Positions 8,098-22,589 of a stretch of 32,874 nt of DNA are shown here, piece by piece (positions within the stretch are counted from its first letter, which is position 1; every line of letters starts with the position of its first letter). Below the pieces are notes generated by a model that made no database searches, had not been told where the DNA came from, and saw nothing but the letters and a program-made list of their open reading frames with translations. Both the position numbers and the translations under genes were made by a program. The DNA comes from an uncultured Bacilli bacterium (GTDB lineage Bacteria > Bacillota_I > Bacilli_A > RF39 > UBA660): the NCBI GenBank assembly GCA_947624855.1, contig CANQMC010000001.1, forward strand, positions 1 to 32,874, read 5' to 3'.

Positions 8098-9471
8098 CTA
8101 AAATTTAATTATATTATCAATATATTCTTTTAAATCTTTAATTTTTACAACTTCTTGTGCCATTGTATCTCGATGTCTTACTGTAACTGTCTCATTATTA
8201 ATTGATTCATCATCAACTGTAATACAAATAGGTGTACCAATCGCATCACTTCTTCGATATCTTTTACCAATTGAGCCACTAGTATCTATACTACACATAA
8301 AATAATTACACAAATCACCATATATATCTTTAGCAAGTTCTTCATGATTTTTCTTTATTAATGGCAAGATAGTAGCTTTAAGTGGTGCTAAAGCTGGATG
8401 TATTTTTAATACTAATCTTTCTTCACCATTTTCTAATATTTCTTTATAATAAGCATCTGTTAAAACTGCATATAATAATCTATCTAAACCCACACTTGGT
8501 TCAATAACATAAGGTAAATATCTTTCATTAGTATCAGGGTCTAAATATCTTAAATCAACTTTAGAATGTTCCATATGAACTCCTAAATCATAATCAGTTC
8601 GATCGGCAATACCCCACAATTCTCCAAAACCAGTTGGAAATTTATATTCAATATCTGTAGTAGCTTTACTATAAAAAGATAATTCTTCTTTAGTATGATC
8701 ACGATATCTTAAATTTTCTTTATTTAAACCAATAGACTTTAAAAAATCTAAACAAAAGTTTTTCCAATATCCAAACCAATCTAAATCATCACCTGGTTTA
8801 CAAAAAAATTCTAATTCCATTTGTTCAAATTCTCTAGTTCTAAAAATAAAGTTTCCTGGTGTAATTTCATTTCTAAAACTTTTACCTGTTTGACATATCC
8901 CAAATGGTAATTTAACTCTCATACTTCGCCAAACATTTACAAAATTAACGAATATTCCCTGAGCAGTTTCCCCTCTTAAATAAACTTTAGCTTTATTATC
9001 TTCTGTAACTCCTTGATGAGTTTCAAATAATAAATTAAATTTTCTAATTCCTGTAAAATCTAATTTACCACATTTAGGACAAGTAATATTATTTTCTTTA
9101 ATAAAATTTTCTAATTTAGCATTATCCCAACCATCACCAGTTTCTTTACCACCTGTAAATTCTTCAATTAATTTATCCGCTCTAAAACGAGATTTACAAG
9201 CTTTACAATCAATTAAAGGATCATTAAAATTAGTTACATGTCCACTAGCTACCCAAACTTCAGGATTCATTAAAATAGCACTGTCAAGGCCATAATTATA
9301 TGGATTTTCTTGAACAAATTTTTTCCACCATGCTCTTCTTAAATTTTCTTTTAATTCTCTTCCTAAAGGTCCATAATCCCAAGTATTAGCAAGTCCTCCA
9401 TATATTTCACTTCCTTGAAATATAAATCCATATTGTTTACAATAATTAACTAATTCTTCTTGAGTTACCAT
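8098..9471 (-). CDS. glyQS: Glycine--tRNA ligase, single-chain (alpha2) GlyQS type
   Basis: Class II aaRS motifs with unmistakable GlyRS similarity (YGGLANTWDYGPLG, FRNEITPGNFIFRTREFEQMELEFF, GLDRLLYAVL). Start trimmed to the ATG at 9471 (MVTQEEL) after GAAAGGAA. The ORF-track extension runs through the leader terminator U-tract. Confidence 0.92.
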   Translation of the reverse strand: MVTQEELVNYCKQYGFIFQGSEIYGGLANTWDYGPLGRELKENLRRAWWKKFVQENPYNYGLDSAILMNPEVWVASGHVTNFNDPLIDCKACKSRFRADKLIEEFTGGKETGDGWDNAKLENFIKENNITCPKCGKLDFTGIRKFNLLFETHQGVTEDNKAKVYLRGETAQGIFVNFVNVWRSMRVKLPFGICQTGKSFRNEITPGNFIFRTREFEQMELEFFCKPGDDLDWFGYWKNFCLDFLKSIGLNKENLRYRDHTKEELSFYSKATTDIEYKFPTGFGELWGIADRTDYDLGVHMEHSKVDLRYLDPDTNERYLPYVIEPSVGLDRLLYAVLTDAYYKEILENGEERLVLKIHPALAPLKATILPLIKKNHEELAKDIYGDLCNYFMCSIDTSGSIGKRYRRSDAIGTPICITVDDESINNETVTVRHRDTMAQEVVKIKDLKEYIDNIIKF

Positions 9472-9484
9472 CTTATCATTCCTT

Positions 9485-9612
9485 TCATTAAAAAACTCTA
9501 AAAGAAACATAGGGACGCAAATATGCGCGGTTCCACCCTACTTATTTCTTTTAGAGAAATCACTTTTCAATATATAACTCCGGATTTTCCACATCCATCA
9601 CCGTTTGTATGT
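9485..9612 (-). promoter_or_regulatory. T-box riboswitch leader of glyQS
   Basis: The minus-strand RNA contains AAGUAGGGUGGAACCGCG (core at 9538-9526), close to the T-box consensus AAUUAGGGUGGUACCGCG. A terminator follows: UAGGG...GCGCA-UAUU-UGCGU-CCCUA, then UGUUUCUUUU. The 5' boundary and specifier are uncertain; a GGA triplet at 9581-9579 is a possible Gly specifier. Confidence 0.7.
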
Positions 9613-9616
9613 ATTT

Positions 9617-9645
9617 ATTATACCTTATATTTCATAATAAATCAA
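9617..9645 (-). promoter_or_regulatory. Sigma-A-type promoter of the glyQS leader
   Basis: On the minus strand: TTGATT (9645-9640), exactly 17 nt, TATAAT (9622-9617). Confidence 0.55.
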
Positions 9646-9655
9646 TACTATATTT

Positions 9656-11097
9656 TTAAGTTGGTATATAAGGATTACTACTTGTTCCTGGTGTTTCTCC
9701 TGGTTTTTCTGTTGTAAACGTTACATCAGCCTTTAAATTTATGACAGGGCGCACACCAAGAGCGCTGTTCACGCCGTTGTTGTTGCTGAGGTAGCCACTC
9801 GAATACACGCCGAACACGATAGCATAGCTGCCGAAAAAGTAAGACGGAGACATGTCCAATAGTATTCTCCTGTATATAAATAATAATTTTTATTATTAGT
9901 GTTATATTTTCCTCCGGCAAATGCTACTTCATCTGCTGTTATTAATCCTATCGGATATTTTAATTTTCCATTCCCTTCATTCCCATCTCCTGGGGTTGTA
10001 TACAAGTCATTATCTTTATATTTACATTTTAAATCTGGTGTCTTGTTTGTATAATTTCTATTATATGCTCCATAATATGTTACTTGTGTTCCATAGCCTC
10101 CTGTTTTAGCATATGTACCTGTTTCACTTGTACTACTTGATCTATCTCCACAAAATCCTGATGTATAACTTATGTGTTCTGTTTCATCTGATAAATTTTT
10201 ATTATACCAATCATCTATTACTCCTTTTATTGTACTATTAGAATTATTAGAATGTGCACTTGCCCAACTGCCTGCACTTGTTGCTCCATACATATACCCT
10301 ACATATGCATTATCACCAGATGATTCATTAAACTTGCTAGTACTTATTTGGGTTCCTGTTCCTGTAGTATTTGGTGCAGCAGGTCCAGTTCCAGCATATA
10401 TCATTCGAACTGAACCATCGCCATTAATACGTATTATTCGCCACCATATATCTTGACTTTTTGTTTTATCTTGCCCAAACTTTACCCAGTTATCTGTTGG
10501 GTTACCTGCAAAGTAATGTACTTCTCCAAAATCATCATATTGACTTGCATCTGCTGATTTATATATTACTCCTGTTGTATCTCCTGTTATTGTAGTATTA
10601 AATGTACCATTTTCTCTTGTTCTTACTGTTGTATGATCTGCTAGTATTTTATCTTTTGCTGTTTCTTTTATATCTAAATATATATAACATCTTGTTCCTT
10701 TTTTATTTACTCCTATATATACTTTTCCTTCTTTATATTCCATTGGTATATCTTTAGCTATTTCATCTTTTGTTCCATTATCTACTGTACAATATGAATT
10801 GGTTGTATTTAATGTATATCCACTTGCTGGTACATCTGTTTTTGTTTCATAACAAGTATCTTTATCTGTACATCCTTTTTGATTTTGTAAATTAATTGCC
10901 ATTAAATTTAAATCTGCTTTTCTTATTCTTACTTCTCCTTCTGCAAAAGGTATTATTTGTTCATATGTATAATTAGCTTTACTTCCTTTTAATATTATTA
11001 CACTTCCTATGGCTACTATTACTACTAATCCTATAAATACTTTTTTAAAATTAAATCCTTTTCTTAGTGTCTCAAACTTAATACCTGTATCTTTCAT
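9656..11097 (-). pseudogene. Membrane-anchored surface protein (about 480 aa if restored) with a C-terminal DUF1566/C-type-lectin-like module, split by a 1-nt frameshift near 9851-9858
   Basis: The 442-aa ORF (9769-11097) has an N-terminal TM anchor (VFIGLVVIVAIGSVIIL) and a Gly/Thr/Tyr/Asn-rich ectodomain (WWRIIRINGDGSVRMIY...ITADEVAFAGG...YYLYTGEYYW). After ...EYYWT it decays into a nonsense tail (CLRLTFSAAMLSC...). The 67-aa ORF in the adjacent frame (9656-9859) continues with MSPSYFFGSYAIVFGVYSSGYLSNNNGVNSALGVRPVINLK, completing the YW.(S/T)..(A).V.F..G......VR.V motif typical of DUF1566-type lectin folds. Confidence 0.7.
9743..9853 (-). other. Candidate DGR variable region: GC-rich, A-poor, NNC-rich patch
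   Basis: Hand count over 37 codons (ATG TCT CCG ... CGC CCT GTC): G+C 60/111, A 18/111, and 19 of 37 codons are NNC (GGC x5, AGC x4, AAC x4, TAC x2, TTC x2, ATC, CTC, CGC, GTC). Flanking codons of the same gene are almost all NNT/NNA. No template repeat or reverse transcriptase is present in this window. Confidence 0.45.
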
Positions 11098-11271: not shown

Positions 11272-11748
11272 ATGTATTATGGAACTTTATTAAAAGAACT
11301 AAGAATTAAAAATGATTTAACTCAAGCTGATATAGCAAATATTTTAAAAATATCCCCTAAAACATATAATCATTATGAAGTAATGGAAAATATAATTCCT
11401 TTAAAACATTTAAATACTTTATGTAATTATTATAATATATCTATCGATTATTTATTTGGTTTTACTAAAACTAAAAAATATAATTTTACAAATACTAATA
11501 TTGATATAAATATAATAAGTGAAAGATTAAAAAGTTATCGTAAAGAAAATAAAATATCTCAAGAAGATATTGCCATTTTATTAAATACTAATCGATCAGT
11601 TATAGCTAATTATGAACGAAAAAGAACTTTAATATCGACATCATGTCTTTATGTATTATGTGATAAATATTTTATATCAGCCGATTATATATTAGGAAGA
11701 ATAGATAAAAAAATAACATTCAAAAAAAAAGATAAAAAAACTAAATAA
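11272..11748 (+). CDS. XRE-family transcriptional regulator with two tandem HTH_3 domains
   Basis: Two HTH units: LTQADIANILKISPKTYNHYE...IDYLFG and ISQEDIAILLNTNRSVIANYE...ADYILG. It is divergent from the surface-protein gene. Confidence 0.8.
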   Translation: MYYGTLLKELRIKNDLTQADIANILKISPKTYNHYEVMENIIPLKHLNTLCNYYNISIDYLFGFTKTKKYNFTNTNIDINIISERLKSYRKENKISQEDIAILLNTNRSVIANYERKRTLISTSCLYVLCDKYFISADYILGRIDKKITFKKKDKKTK

Positions 11749-11765: not shown

Positions 11766-12575
11766 TTATCTAGATTCATAAATTCTATTTTTTATAGAAG
11801 CTAATAAATTTAACATATCTAAAGCAAATTCTCTAATTTCTCCTGAAACATTTTCACTATATAATAAATATTCAAAATCTGGATAAATTAAATTTAAAGT
11901 TTCTTCATCACATATAGTTATTTTACTTAAAACATTAAACATTTCAATAATCATTTTACTATAAGTATCAGAATCTCTTTTAAAATCACTTGGACATTTA
12001 GTTAAATATTCTATTGATAATCTACTTTCATAAGCAAGTATTGCAATATCTACATATTTAGAACCTAAAAAATAATCATTTCGATAATTAGCACATTCAA
12101 GTTCAATTATATCTGGTTCTAAACCATTTAAAAAATTATATTCCAAATCAACATTTGTATAATACAAATAATATTTATAACTAAGTAATTTTTCTTTTAC
12201 TTGTTCATTATTTTCATTATTTAATAATTCATTTATTAAACTTAAATTTATTTTAGCAATATCAAAACGAAGAATATCAGCATATTCTATTGCATCTTCC
12301 CCAATCGTATTATAAAGTGTATTTGATATTCTATCATAAACATCACTATCTATATATTTTTTTCTTTTTTTTATATATCCAATAGCTTTTTCTATTAAAT
12401 TTTTATTTGCTAATTCTATTAAAAGTCTTTTTTCTCTATTTAAAAATTCTTTAACTGGTCCTAAATATAATCTATAATCTATATCATTATTTATAGCTTC
12501 CATATAAGCTAAATTGATATAAAAATCTTTTATAATAGCACAAGTTTCAATTAAATCATTTATTATACGTTCCAT
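11766..12575 (-). CDS. Hypothetical helical protein (269 aa) encoded immediately downstream of rpoC
   Basis: Long ORF. Start trimmed to the ATG at 12575 (MERIINDL), preceded by GGGGGA. No terminator hairpin is visible in the roughly 50 nt between the rpoC stop and this start. I recognise no family. Confidence 0.6.
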   Translation of the reverse strand: MERIINDLIETCAIIKDFYINLAYMEAINNDIDYRLYLGPVKEFLNREKRLLIELANKNLIEKAIGYIKKRKKYIDSDVYDRISNTLYNTIGEDAIEYADILRFDIAKINLSLINELLNNENNEQVKEKLLSYKYYLYYTNVDLEYNFLNGLEPDIIELECANYRNDYFLGSKYVDIAILAYESRLSIEYLTKCPSDFKRDSDTYSKMIIEMFNVLSKITICDEETLNLIYPDFEYLLYSENVSGEIREFALDMLNLLASIKNRIYESR

Positions 12576-12627
12576 AAAATATCCCCCTATAAATAAATAT
12601 AACACAAATAAAAAAAGAAAGCTACTA

Positions 12628-15600
12628 TTATTCACTATCTTCTTTTAAATCTTCTAATATTTCTTGATCTTCATCATTATTTTTTATATCTTTAGCTTCT
12701 TCATTTTGAGGTTGTTCTTCTTTTTTAGTTGGATTACCATCTTCATCTAAAAGTTGTTCTTCTAAGAATTCACTAGGTTCATCATCCATAAATTCTTTTT
12801 CTAAATATATATCGATATCACTATATTCTTTAGCACCAGTTCCGGCTGGAATAAGTTTACCAATAATAACATTTTCTTTTAGACCTCTTAAGTAATCAAC
12901 TTTACCTTTAATCGCAGCATCTGTTAATACTCTTGTTGTTTCTTGGAATGAAGCTGCTGATAAATAACTATCTGTTTCTAATGAAGATTTAGTTATACCA
13001 AGCATAATTGGTCTACCTGTTGCTGGTACTCCTCCTTTTAAGATTACTGGTTTATTACCTTCAGTAAATTCATGTAATGAAACAGTTAAACCTTCAACAA
13101 AATCTGTATCTCCAGCATCAATAATTCTAACTTTATTGATCATTCTCTTAACAATAATTTCAATATGTTTATCGTTAATATCAACACCTTGTAATTTATA
13201 AACTGCTTGGATTTCTCTTAAAATATATTCTTGAGCTGTAAGTGGATCTGTAACAGCTAATAATTCTTTAGGAGCTATAGAACCTTCTGTTAATTTTTCA
13301 CCAGCTTGAACTGTATCTCCAACTTCCACTCTAAGTTTAGTATTATAATTAGTTATATGTTCTCTAATACCTGCTTCATTTTCCACAACAACTTTATGTT
13401 TACCACCTAAATCTTCAATAGCAATAACTTTACCATTAATTTCTGATACTGTAGCCTTATATTTAGGAGTACGAGCTTCAAATAATTCTTCAACCCGAGG
13501 TAAACCTTGAGTAATATCATCGCCACCAGCAACTCCACCGGTATGGAATGTTCGCATTGTAAGTTGAGTACCAGGTTCTCCAATAGATTGAGCAGCCATA
13601 ATACCTACAGCTTCACCTGTTTCAACTAAATTACCTGTAGCTAAGTTCCGTCCATAACATTTTTGACAAACCCCATTTTGAGTTTTACATGTTAAGACAC
13701 TTCTTATTTCTACTTTTTTAACCCCAGCATTAACTATTTTAGTAGCAATGTTTTCAGTAATTAATTCATCTTTATCAACTATAACTTCTTTAGTTTCAGG
13801 ATGAAGTACTTTTTTAGCAGTATATCTACCTAAAATTCTTTCAGATAAACTTTCTATCATCGCGCCATCTTTATCATTAACTAAATCGTATACTTCAACT
13901 CCAGCGATAGAACCACAATCAAATTCTTTAACAATAATATCTTGAGCAACATCAACTAATCTTCTGGTTAAATATCCGGAATCGGCTGTTCTTAAAGCGG
14001 TATCAGCTGAACCTTTTCTTGAACCATGAGTTGATAAGAAGAATTCGGATACATCTAATCCTTCAATAAAACATGAAGTAATTGGAATTTCAACAGTCGA
14101 ACCATCAGGTTTAGCCATTAAACCTCTCATACCTGCAAGTTGAGTAAAGTTTGAAATTGAACCACGAGCATTAGAGTTCATCATCATAAATATAGGATTA
14201 TCAAAATCATTGGCCGATAAAGCTTGTAATTCTTTTTTAATTTCATCATTAGCTTCTGTCCATATTTCAATAACACTGTTATAACGTTCTTCATCGGTAA
14301 TTAAGCCTCTTTTAAATTGTTTATTAACCTTTTCAACTTTTTCTTTAGCTTTATCAATAATATCTTGTTTATGTTCACTTCTTACGATATCTGATACTGA
14401 TACTGTAATACCCGCAACCGTAGAATATTTAAAACCTAAATCTTTTAATTTATCAAGCATTATTGAAGTTTCAGTAGTTTTATATCTTTTAAATACTTGA
14501 GCAATTATCCATTCTAAAGTTTTTTTAACAAATGGTTTAGATAATTCCATTTTAGCTATTTCTTTTGGAATATTTTTACCCATTTCAATAAAGAATTTAT
14601 TTGGAGTTATACCTTCAATATTATCTTTAGTTCCTTCATTAATAAATGGGAAAGAATCAGGTAATATTTCATTAAATATTATTTTACCAACTGTTGTAAC
14701 TAAATATTTATCATGTTGTTCTTCTGTAAATAATTTATGGGTAAAAGATCTAACTGGTAAAGCAATTCTAGTATGTAAAGTTACTTCTCTTCTTTCATAA
14801 GCCATTAAAGCTTCACTTGGACTTTTAAATACTCGTCCTTCGTTTTCTTCACCAGCTTTCTCAATTGTTAAGTAACAATTACCAAGCACCATATCTTGGG
14901 ATGGTGTAACAATTGGTTTTCCATCTTTAGGATTTAAAATATTACTTGCTGATAACATTAAAATTCTAGCTTCGGCTTTAGCTTCTTCAGATAAAGGAAT
15001 ATGAACAGCCATTTGATCTCCATCGAAATCGGCATTAAATCCTGTACAAACTAAAGGGTGTAATCTAATAGCTTTTCCTCCAACTAATTTTGGTTCAAAA
15101 GCTTGAATACCAAGTCTATGTAAAGTTGGGGCTCTGTTAAGCAAAACTGGATGTTCTGTAATTACATCTTCCACTATATCCCAAACACATTCATCTCTAG
15201 TATCTATTAATTTTTTAGCTCCTTTAATATTATGAGCTAAACCTCTTTCTACTAAACCATGAATAACATGAGGTTTAAATAACTCTAAAGCCATTTCTTT
15301 AGGAATACCACATTGATACATTTTTAAATTTGGTCCTACAACGATAACTGAACGACCAGAGTAATCTACTCTTTTACCAAGTAAATTTTGACGGAAACGA
15401 CCTTGTTTACCTTTTAACATACTAGATAAACTTTTAAGTGGTCTATTTCCGGCAGCAGTAATACTACGACCTCTACGACCATTATCAAATAAGCTATCAA
15501 CTGCTTCTTGAAGCATTCTTTTTTCATTTTGAACAATAATAGTAGGTGCTCCAAGTTCTAATAACTTTCTTAAACGATTATTTCGATTAATAATTCGACG

Positions 15601-22512: not shown

Positions 22513-22589
22513 GGCGGGATAGCTCAGCTGGCTAGAGCGACCGGTTCATACCCGGTAGGTCGGGGGTTCAATCCCCTCTCCCGCTACCA
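22513..22589 (+). tRNA. tRNA-Met (anticodon CAT), elongator type
   Basis: Hand-folded cloverleaf: acceptor GGCGGGA/TCCCGCT, D arm GCTC-AGCTGGCTA-GAGC, anticodon arm ACCGG-TTCATAC-CCGGT, T arm GGGGG-TTCAATC-CCCTC, discriminator A, encoded CCA. It is near-identical in the D, anticodon and T arms to the B. subtilis elongator tRNA-Met as I recall it. It lacks the initiator features (1:72 mismatch, three G-C pairs in the anticodon stem). A tRNA-Ile2 (lysidine) identity cannot be fully excluded. Confidence 0.92.

Follow-up and report, generated by a model that had tools for sequence, protein, structure and literature searches.

In prokaryotes, diversity-generating retroelements (DGRs) are the only natural means known of targeted protein hypermutation, and work is under way to adapt them to directed evolution. 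A hairpin or cruciform past the variable region (VR) is a trait of the Bordetella type and is not universal among DGRs. A small gene for a MutS-domain-I protein (MSL) has been described as a DGR accessory gene by Wu et al. 2018 (PMC5758913), and several template repeats (TRs) per DGR have been reported occasionally (PMC6642488). DUF6273 domains are known as C-type-lectin-like DGR targets in gut phages (PMC10743442), and the VR of these phage targets has been described as a beta-hairpin on the C-type-lectin-like domain (PMC10743442, PMC11792537). Here we examine a 32,874-nt stretch of an uncultured Bacilli bacterium (contig CANQMC010000001.1; hereafter the window), in which an earlier reading made from the letters alone (the sequence-only reading) had taken a GC-rich patch at the 3′ end of a surface-protein gene to be an orphan DGR variable region. 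Our comparative analysis supports this identification: the same scaffold recurs in other metagenome-assembled genomes (MAGs), non-coding TRs rich in AAY codons (Y being C or T) match it, differences between TRs and VRs are biased towards adenine, and a reverse transcriptase (RT) cassette is present in relatives. Judged from these comparisons, the patch is very probably the VR of a DGR target in a surface protein of gut Bacilli. Taken alone, the patch is one more DGR target.

A compositionally foreign patch with sharp edges

The patch occupies 9743-9853 on the minus strand (ATGTCTCCG...CGCCCTGTC; translation MSPSYFFGSYAIVFGVYSSGYLSNNNGVNSALGVRPV). Its G+C content is 60/111 (54.05%) and its adenine content 18/111, and of its codons 19/37 end in C, 7 in G, 11 in T and none in A; the counts of the sequence-only reading (54% G+C, 18 A, 19/37 NNC codons) were reproduced exactly on recount. 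Across all 111-nt segments of the 32,874 nt, mean GC is 25.5% (standard deviation 7.1%) and the maximum, 55%, falls at 9747-9857; a tRNA-Met gene (22513-22589) is the sole other stretch that approaches the GC content of the patch. GC content at third codon positions (GC3) is 0.72 in the patch core versus 0.18 in the preceding 150 nt.

Homology between the VR and the TR family described below stops at GGTGTGCGCCC, a stretch that is unchanged in nearly all TRs and in "fresh" VRs. Immediately after it the two diverge, the VR reading (A/T)GT(A/C)ATAAAT.. and the TR reading AATATCCTTTTAAAC. The GC-rich 3′ edge therefore does lie, as had been suggested, in a position like that of an initiation of mutagenic homing (IMH) element, and we infer that GGTGTGCGCCC has the IMH function (Table 1).

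The same patch in related genomes

A scan of a genome collection returned 42 loci, all from MAGs of uncultured gut bacteria labelled "Bacilli", "Tenericutes" or "Mycoplasma sp." and derived from rabbit, goat, chicken and human. The host lineage is uncultured gut Bacilli, represented by low-GC MAGs labelled "Mycoplasma sp." or "Tenericutes". Target genes are often multi-copy, with at least 9 paralogs on different contigs of one MAG (Lapin-028__bin40). The patch is shared by 17 homologs from other MAGs, in which core GC is 45-62% against a locus background of 25-31% and reaches at least 50% in 12 of the 17; other paralogs have an ordinary AT-rich stretch at the patch site. Among paralog VRs, GC3 forms a continuous gradient from 0.79 to 0.11, with eroded scaffolds such as that of L134 included.

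Three loci from three MAGs (L129, L136 and L142) have VRs that share 65-66 of the 66 scaffold positions, an agreement that is not independent as the scaffold was defined from L129, L136 and L142 themselves. Because the scaffold came from these same three VRs, we turn for independent evidence to the contrast between codon positions: identity among the three VRs is 0.95-0.97 at third positions and 0.68-0.75 at first and second positions, and in the 150 nt upstream third-position identity is 0.38-0.50. The codon-position pattern within the VRs is the reverse of ordinary coding evolution, and is what would be expected from a shared template with randomised AAY codons. In protein alignments, similarly, the flanks YWTMSP and GVRPVINL are nearly invariant and approximately 20 interspersed positions vary even among the closest relatives.

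Longer homologs with several WTM(S/T)P...GVRPV modules were also encountered (L165 8751-12148 and L166). Two such modules occur in the 715-aa protein P0006 and a third in the adjoining upstream 416-aa gene; all modules at this locus carry AT-type patches, either unwritten or decayed.

Non-coding template repeats and adenine bias

A TR core inferred from VRs alone (GTGAATTCGAMTGGCAACCTCAAC, GTG AAT TCG AMT GGC AAC CTC AAC) retrieved 23 metagenome loci, all of them non-coding and AAY-rich, with conserved flanks and with boundaries that match those of the VR exactly. Read in the VR frame, these copies are bounded by a stop codon at either end; they start with (A/T)(T/A)GTCTCCG and end with GGTGTGCGCCC, and their AAC and AAT codons sit where the VRs vary. 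An intergenic copy that belongs to the same family (L129 3497-3598) comes from the MAG that holds nine targets.

We then compared 20 distinct TRs and 17 GC-rich VRs in a joint alignment. VR entropy is 1.62 bits at the 26 columns in which the TR has A, versus 0.50 at the 64 non-A columns (Mann-Whitney p=1.6e-12), and binomial tests of the A-site bias performed for each VR mostly gave values of 1e-3 to 1e-7. TR/VR pairs drawn from different samples show 15-20 A-site versus 4-6 non-A mismatches. The window VR behaves in the same manner, with 16 A-site mismatches, 6 non-A mismatches and one codon indel relative to the TR of L206 (binomial p=2.8e-5 at 29% A), and 14 A-site and 7 non-A mismatches relative to the TR of L186 (p=3.6e-4); these two were its best-matching TRs.

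A profile search with TR peptides, that is, open reading frames (ORFs) called over TRs, recovered 144 short proteins from ENA, Logan, JGI and NCBI, and matches across these four sources indicate that TR units are widespread. Among the top 120 of these short proteins, 36 contain ...GVRPISF, which is the junction between the TR and the 3′ domain of its unit. The same search returned N-rich ORFs with other tails, namely GVRPDSYYKL, GVRQYPFKL and GVRPIPTKI (e.g., P0389, P0391, P0400, P0407 and P0425), which are probably TRs of other DGR lineages targeting DUF6273-type domains; one protein recovered, P0365, is labelled Candidatus Saccharibacteria.

In IMG/VR, the first inferred-TR pattern, the TR core and the TR 3′ flank had 0 matches each, and we therefore conclude that the system is not represented in IMG/VR. 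A pattern anchored on A-free codons likewise had 0 matches in viral contigs and 0 in the genome collection, which does not include the genome of the window. An unanchored degenerate pattern (M/R/W) was discarded as a probe of viral contigs: the one match inspected (L027) was a poly-A run, and most matches lay at contig ends.

TR units as probable small RNA genes

The TR copies form part of units of approximately 285 nt that consist of a promoter, the TR, a conserved folded 3′ domain and usually a terminator-like stem. The order is GGTTAATCT, then the TR, then a 3′ domain of approximately 135 nt (AATATCCTTTTAAAC...AGGATACAAGATTA...hairpin). Three units at L176 have a near-consensus extended −10 promoter, ATGACA-16-TG-TATAAT, matching at 11/12 positions in two units and at 10/12 in the third. 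The consensus fold of the 3′ domain comprises 32 pairs, 11 of which show compensatory changes, and no Rfam family matches the unit. A stem followed by a T-run ends most units, those of L176 included, when read by eye; an automated scan called no terminator there. Units occur singly, in pairs (L171, L188) or as three in tandem (L176, 2340-3200, minus strand). Frequently a target gene lies at a distance of 0.6-2.5 kb from them; an RT never adjoins them.

Several further features of these units were noted. TRs inside one tandem array differ from each other, and not only at adenines. A leader upstream of the TR (L167-L189, e.g., L176 2561-2582) can pair with the start of the TR, and the resulting hairpin (GGAGA...TCTCC, AGACT...AGTCT) changes in sequence between units with pairing kept; this hairpin may define the 5′ limit of the TR. 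Variant units (L169, L173, L174 and L185) are without the GGTGTGCGCCC end; in them ...GTGAATAATAAAATAATGATGTCCTGTTAGGCGCTTGACAGGGC precedes the conserved AATA(T/C)CCTTTTAAAC, equivalent to the insertion of a GC-rich hairpin. Some units adjoin genes for collagen-like proteins with GPTGPTGPTG repeats (L168, L172, L175, L183 and L189), and near some of them a conserved 611-aa ORF, which might be a mobile element, lies amid a run of small ORFs. Some TR genes may thus travel on mobile DNA.

An RT operon in a fixed chromosomal context

Using tblastn with the Brt protein of Bordetella (AY029185) as query, we identified RTs in L133, which belongs to Lapin-028__bin40, and in L154 (Brt versus the L133 RT, E=7e-24). 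Both have an RVT_1 domain (3e-23), an IGNMTSQ motif of the DGR type, (I/L/V)GxxxSQ, and YMDD. A 117-aa bAvd-like gene precedes the RT in both loci. The MutS_I (MSL) gene of L133 lies before avd, and that of L154 follows the RT. The RT family is 75-88% identical over more than 90 protein clusters and occupies a fixed chromosomal context, MYG1_exonuc-MSL-bAvd-RT-(small ORF)-DUF378, among housekeeping genes (L133 10888-14639; L202 8152-11335); MYG1 is a metal-dependent exonuclease family. No TR was found in these RT cassettes or within 10 kb of them. In Lapin-028__bin40 the RT (L133), a TR unit (L129) and at least nine targets all lie on separate contigs. The view of the window patch as a remote target is therefore supported by related genomes, where the RT/bAvd/MSL cassette occurs and is not linked to TRs. 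We also note that the RT is far more conserved than the target protein, for which identity between the window and homologs in other MAGs is 35-53%.

The target gene and its protein

As assembled, the target gene is split between two overlapping ORFs in different frames, ORF 9769-11097 (442 aa) and ORF 9656-9859 (67 aa). The patch is carried by the latter, and the former, which is present in databases as a 442-aa protein, enters the patch out of frame. When the Thr codon is completed by one base between 9854 and 9853, the two frames join into a protein of 480 aa (...YYWTMSPSYFF...GVRPVINLK...), in agreement with the length of about 480 aa that had been anticipated. TGG ACN ATG (T/A)CN CC is found in nearly all of approximately 60 related genes and the 14-nt spacing is intact in all of these relatives; the window alone reads TGGACATGTCTCC. 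The 1-nt deletion could have arisen when cDNA was integrated imprecisely, could be an ordinary mutation that turned the gene into a pseudogene, or could be an error in the assembly of a variable junction. The window copy is either a recently inactivated target (possibly bearing a retrohoming scar) or the product of an assembly error.

Database homologs of the restored protein number more than 7,500, the closest being 70% identical and 480 aa long, and the description of the protein's architecture as unusual does not hold given a family of this size. The family assignment had to be revised in part. In a Pfam hmmscan (E<=1), the restored protein matched neither DUF1566 nor FGE-sulfatase, and its only match was to DUF6273 (PF19789; residues 379-456, E=5e-4), which is weak (20.3 bits versus a gathering cutoff of 23.5) but is backed by structure matches; an NCBIfam search of the restored protein returned nothing. 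Numerous homologs already carry the PF19789 annotation. An AlphaFold2 (AF2) model of the 70%-identical homolog P0002, based on a 54-sequence alignment, has a predicted local distance difference test score of 85.6 and comprises a helix (17-37), beta-sandwich strands (approximately 65-145) and a globular region (150-480). The VR corresponds to residues 416-451 of 480, and the patch forms a run of strands in the model, residues 420-455. The top structure matches in BFVD are phage DUF6273 proteins (E 4e-4 to 0.1, probability up to 0.99).

Table 1 Features of the target locus and its surroundings in the window
Feature	Position	Strand	Remarks
Variable region (VR), ATGTCTCCG...GGTGTGCGCCC	9747..9853	-	Stretch homologous to the TR family; both edges match the edges of the non-coding TR units
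GC-rich 3′ edge GGTGTGCGCCC, IMH-like position	9747..9757	-	Final stretch common to VR and TR
Hairpin TGTAA-CGT-TTACA, 5 bp	9713..9725	-	Present in the window; no conserved equivalent in relatives
Target gene, frameshifted as assembled	9656..11097	-	N-terminal membrane anchor, beta-sandwich and large DUF6273-like ectodomain; 480 aa when restored
1-nt deletion in Thr codon (TGG AC- ATG)	9853..9855	-	1-3 nt upstream of the 5′ TR-homology edge; causes the frameshift
Double-HTH XRE-family regulator	11272..11748	+	Two Pfam domains, HTH_19 and HTH_3 (1e-20); transcription divergent from that of the target

Genes around the target

The divergent arrangement of XRE gene and target (Table 1), noted here as context, is conserved in several relatives: L129 and L133 each have an XRE gene head-to-head with the target, and in L173/L185 the genes just upstream are XRE-like. 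Beside the XRE regulator of the window, and immediately upstream of rpoC, is a 289-aa ORF (11766-12635, minus strand) that has no Pfam match. On the other side, a compact T-box leader (9508-9657, minus strand) starts at the stop codon of the target gene and lies directly upstream of a glycyl-tRNA synthetase gene (8098-9510); its low score, 46 bits versus an Rfam gathering score of 93, is apparently due to a much shortened stem I.

Evidence against a DGR and the question of present activity

Several of our results weigh against the interpretation of the patch as a DGR-written VR. The first is that this interpretation is supported by relatives and not by the window's own genome. No TR, RT or Avd gene was recovered from the 33 kb, just as the sequence-only reading had reported: blastn-short and a degenerate scan allowing the VR base or A found no second copy of the patch (the best off-target of the scan in the window, presumably A-rich DNA, scored 88/111), a covariance model of the TR 3′ domain found no TR, and tblastn with Brt and Avd found no RT or Avd. 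This absence would be explained by the separate locations that the RT operon, TR genes and target paralogs normally have in those related genomes that were sampled. It should also be kept in mind that MAG binning may have mis-assigned contigs.

A second group of objections concerns the templates. With 6-7 non-A mismatches and a codon indel, the TRs of L206 and L186 are relatives of the cognate TR and not the cognate TR itself, and no exact cognate of the window VR was present among the many further TR units from the TR-peptide profile search. Nor did we find in any relative a TR/VR pair from one genome with differences at A-sites only. The TR of L129 was rejected as the template of that locus's own VR, from which it differs by 16 A-site and 15 non-A mismatches.

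Third, the target gene is frameshifted as assembled, and its fold has no direct counterpart among solved structures: Foldseek against PDB gave a best E of 0.74 and no solved C-type-lectin structure. A profile search against PDB sequences also gave no significant match. As both the structure and the profile search against PDB were null, the assignment to the C-type-lectin fold is taken from the DUF6273 relatives and the literature. The hairpin that had been pointed out downstream of the patch does exist in the sequence, but no conserved inverted repeat was found downstream of the VR across 44 related VRs; we consider it probably fortuitous and rejected it as a functional element on the ground that it is not conserved.

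The last objection concerns variability. Ten clusters of homologs formed at 90% identity could be evaluated, and none has a hypervariable VR: the VR either does not change or changes approximately at background level, no more than the rest of the protein. A protein of Mycoplasma sp. CAG:776, for instance, was found on approximately 200 contigs in all, 120 of which carry one and the same variant. Because orthologous VRs hardly change within species-level clusters, rewriting would seem to be infrequent or a thing of the past, and current diversification may be rare, absent, or masked by consensus assemblies, in which minority VR variants can be hidden. Rewriting seems to be rare on the timescale of strain divergence, yet recent relative to species divergence and AT-biased decay. 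The proposal that the patch is kept foreign by repeated retrohoming is thus retained only in part.

One strain variant observed in these comparisons (P0156, a member of the P0050 cluster) differs in a stretch that begins upstream of the VR (LPWSGSTTSNYLYTGQYYWTMSPYSFGGSFASVFRVDS), a pattern that suggests exchange with a paralog and not rewriting by a DGR.

Alternative explanations

One may postulate a scenario in which the patch is a fossil, written once by a DGR that has since been lost or fallen silent in this genome and carried by a target that is now a decaying pseudogene. The frameshift at 9853/9854, the invariance of VRs within species-level clusters and the absence of any DGR part from the window are all in keeping with such a scenario, as is the GC3 gradient among paralogs (0.79-0.11), which together with partly eroded scaffolds such as L134 leads us to conclude that unwritten VRs decay. 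The window VR, however, is among the least decayed (GC3 0.72), its scaffold of GTG, TTC, TCG, GGC, CTC and GGTGTGCGCCC is intact, and the gene has a single lesion, with no stop codons in the restored frame. Loss of the system would moreover be an exception in a lineage whose RT is so strongly conserved (75-88% identity, more than 90 clusters) and keeps a fixed context. We regard the fossil scenario as quite credible, although less likely than not.

A second alternative is RT-independent gene conversion, in which the TR-like units would be silent donor cassettes comparable to the MgPa repeats of Mycoplasma genitalium. The presence of several TR-like units per genome, some in tandem and often 0.6-2.5 kb from a target yet never beside the RT, would fit such an arrangement, as would the stability of VRs within strains. 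Conversion would, however, keep the AAY codons and produce Asn-rich VRs, whereas the observed VRs differ mostly at TR adenines; a DNA donor would have no need of a promoter, a covarying 3′ RNA domain and, usually, a terminator-like stem; and a cassette of DGR-type RT, Avd and MSL is found in the same MAG. This explanation is very unlikely. An origin by horizontal transfer or recombination with a higher-GC homolog, or as an assembly chimera, would account for the abrupt switch in composition at both edges and for the frameshift at the 5′ edge, but is extremely improbable given that the patch occurs with identical edges in more than 20 independent low-GC assemblies, that its only non-genic relatives are A-rich non-coding TR units, that no GC-rich donor gene turned up while all recovered TR and target loci lie in low-GC DNA, and that transfer does not predict conserved third and variable first and second positions.

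A possible distributed mechanism

If the patch is a DGR variable region, its properties can be accommodated in a scheme whose biochemical steps are inferred from analogy with the DGR of Bordetella phage BPP-1. A small non-coding TR RNA, containing the AAY-rich TR and the conserved folded 3′ domain of approximately 135 nt, would be transcribed and then reverse-transcribed by the DGR RT together with bAvd and MSL (a small MutS-domain-I protein), all supplied from a separate chromosomal operon. TR adenines would be copied unfaithfully, and the cDNA would replace the target stretch between ATGTCTCCG and GGTGTGCGCCC. In this manner AAC and AAT codons would become NNC and NNT, the A-free scaffold codons GTG, TTC, TCG, GGC, CTC and CGC would be copied exactly, and approximately 17-20 codons in the C-terminal DUF6273 domain of the target would be diversified. 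The GC-rich, A-poor and NNC-rich patch would appear foreign in a 25%-GC genome because it was written from a TR with adenine randomisation.

More broadly, we tentatively suggest a distributed DGR, in which one chromosomally fixed MYG1-MSL-Avd-RT operon acts in trans on a library of TR-RNA genes and each TR type programs different members of a very large family of DUF6273 paralogs; the window patch would then be one remote target, and its 1-nt deletion an integration scar. Diversification would thus run from many templates to many targets, in a form that DGR finders anchored on the RT would probably overlook. We consider this a genuine possibility, though not one to be relied upon at present.

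Such an arrangement, if true, would have several consequences. Searches that depend on a TR close to the RT would probably count too few systems of this kind, the conserved 3′ RNA domain would represent a compact natural module for supplying a TR in trans, and the gradient from fresh to decayed VRs would provide a built-in clock for the frequency of DGR firing in nature. For the question of how active gut DGRs are, the apparent within-species stability of VRs is also relevant.

Comparison with described DGRs

Our literature searches found no description of a TR-less RT operon combined with autonomous TR-RNA genes and a large cellular DUF6273 family, and the elements of the system are best viewed against the DGRs to which they are most similar. 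With the DGR of phage BPP-1 (mtd VR1 - avd - TR - brt) the system shares the size of the VR (approximately 105-135 nt) and its place in the final quarter of the gene for a ligand-binding protein, approximately 90 nt before the stop codon. In both, the TR is AAC/AAT-rich and departs from the VR mainly at its adenines, the homology ends on its 3′ side in a GC-rich stretch, and a related RT has a bAvd-like partner. The phage cassette is compact, however, with the TR between avd and brt. In the present system no TR lies within 10 kb of the RT operon; the TRs instead form putative small RNA genes of their own, and the chromosome carries many targets. An MSL gene is also present, the VR is not followed by a conserved hairpin, and the target domain is of the DUF6273 type and not that of Mtd.

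Among bacterial systems, the DGRs with MSL known as "Architecture D" (including that of Legionella pneumophila; PMC5758913) are likewise chromosomal and combine an RT, avd and a MutS-domain-I gene. The architectures described in the literature searched place the TR inside the cassette, in contrast to the MYG1-MSL-Avd-RT arrangement seen here, which is without one. The TvpA DGR of Treponema denticola and other multi-target DGRs with remote VRs resemble the present system in that one RT appears to serve surface-protein targets scattered around the chromosome. The Treponema element differs in having an HRDC accessory gene and one cassette-borne TR, whereas here several distinct TR units, which stand alone or as many as three in tandem, would be independently transcribed. 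The target family here is also much the larger of the two, one MAG having at least nine paralogs.

In the target itself there is similarity to the phage DUF6273 proteins ("tentaclins", Faecalibacterium prophage; PMC10743442, PMC11792537), which probably belong to the same domain family; to the beta-hairpin described for their VR may be compared the strands at 420-455 that form the VR in the P0002 model. Viral relatives of the RT are only approximately 30% identical to the RT of this lineage. The phage targets are receptor-binding proteins encoded in compact cassettes, whereas the target described here is a cellular, membrane-anchored protein whose VR is C-terminal.

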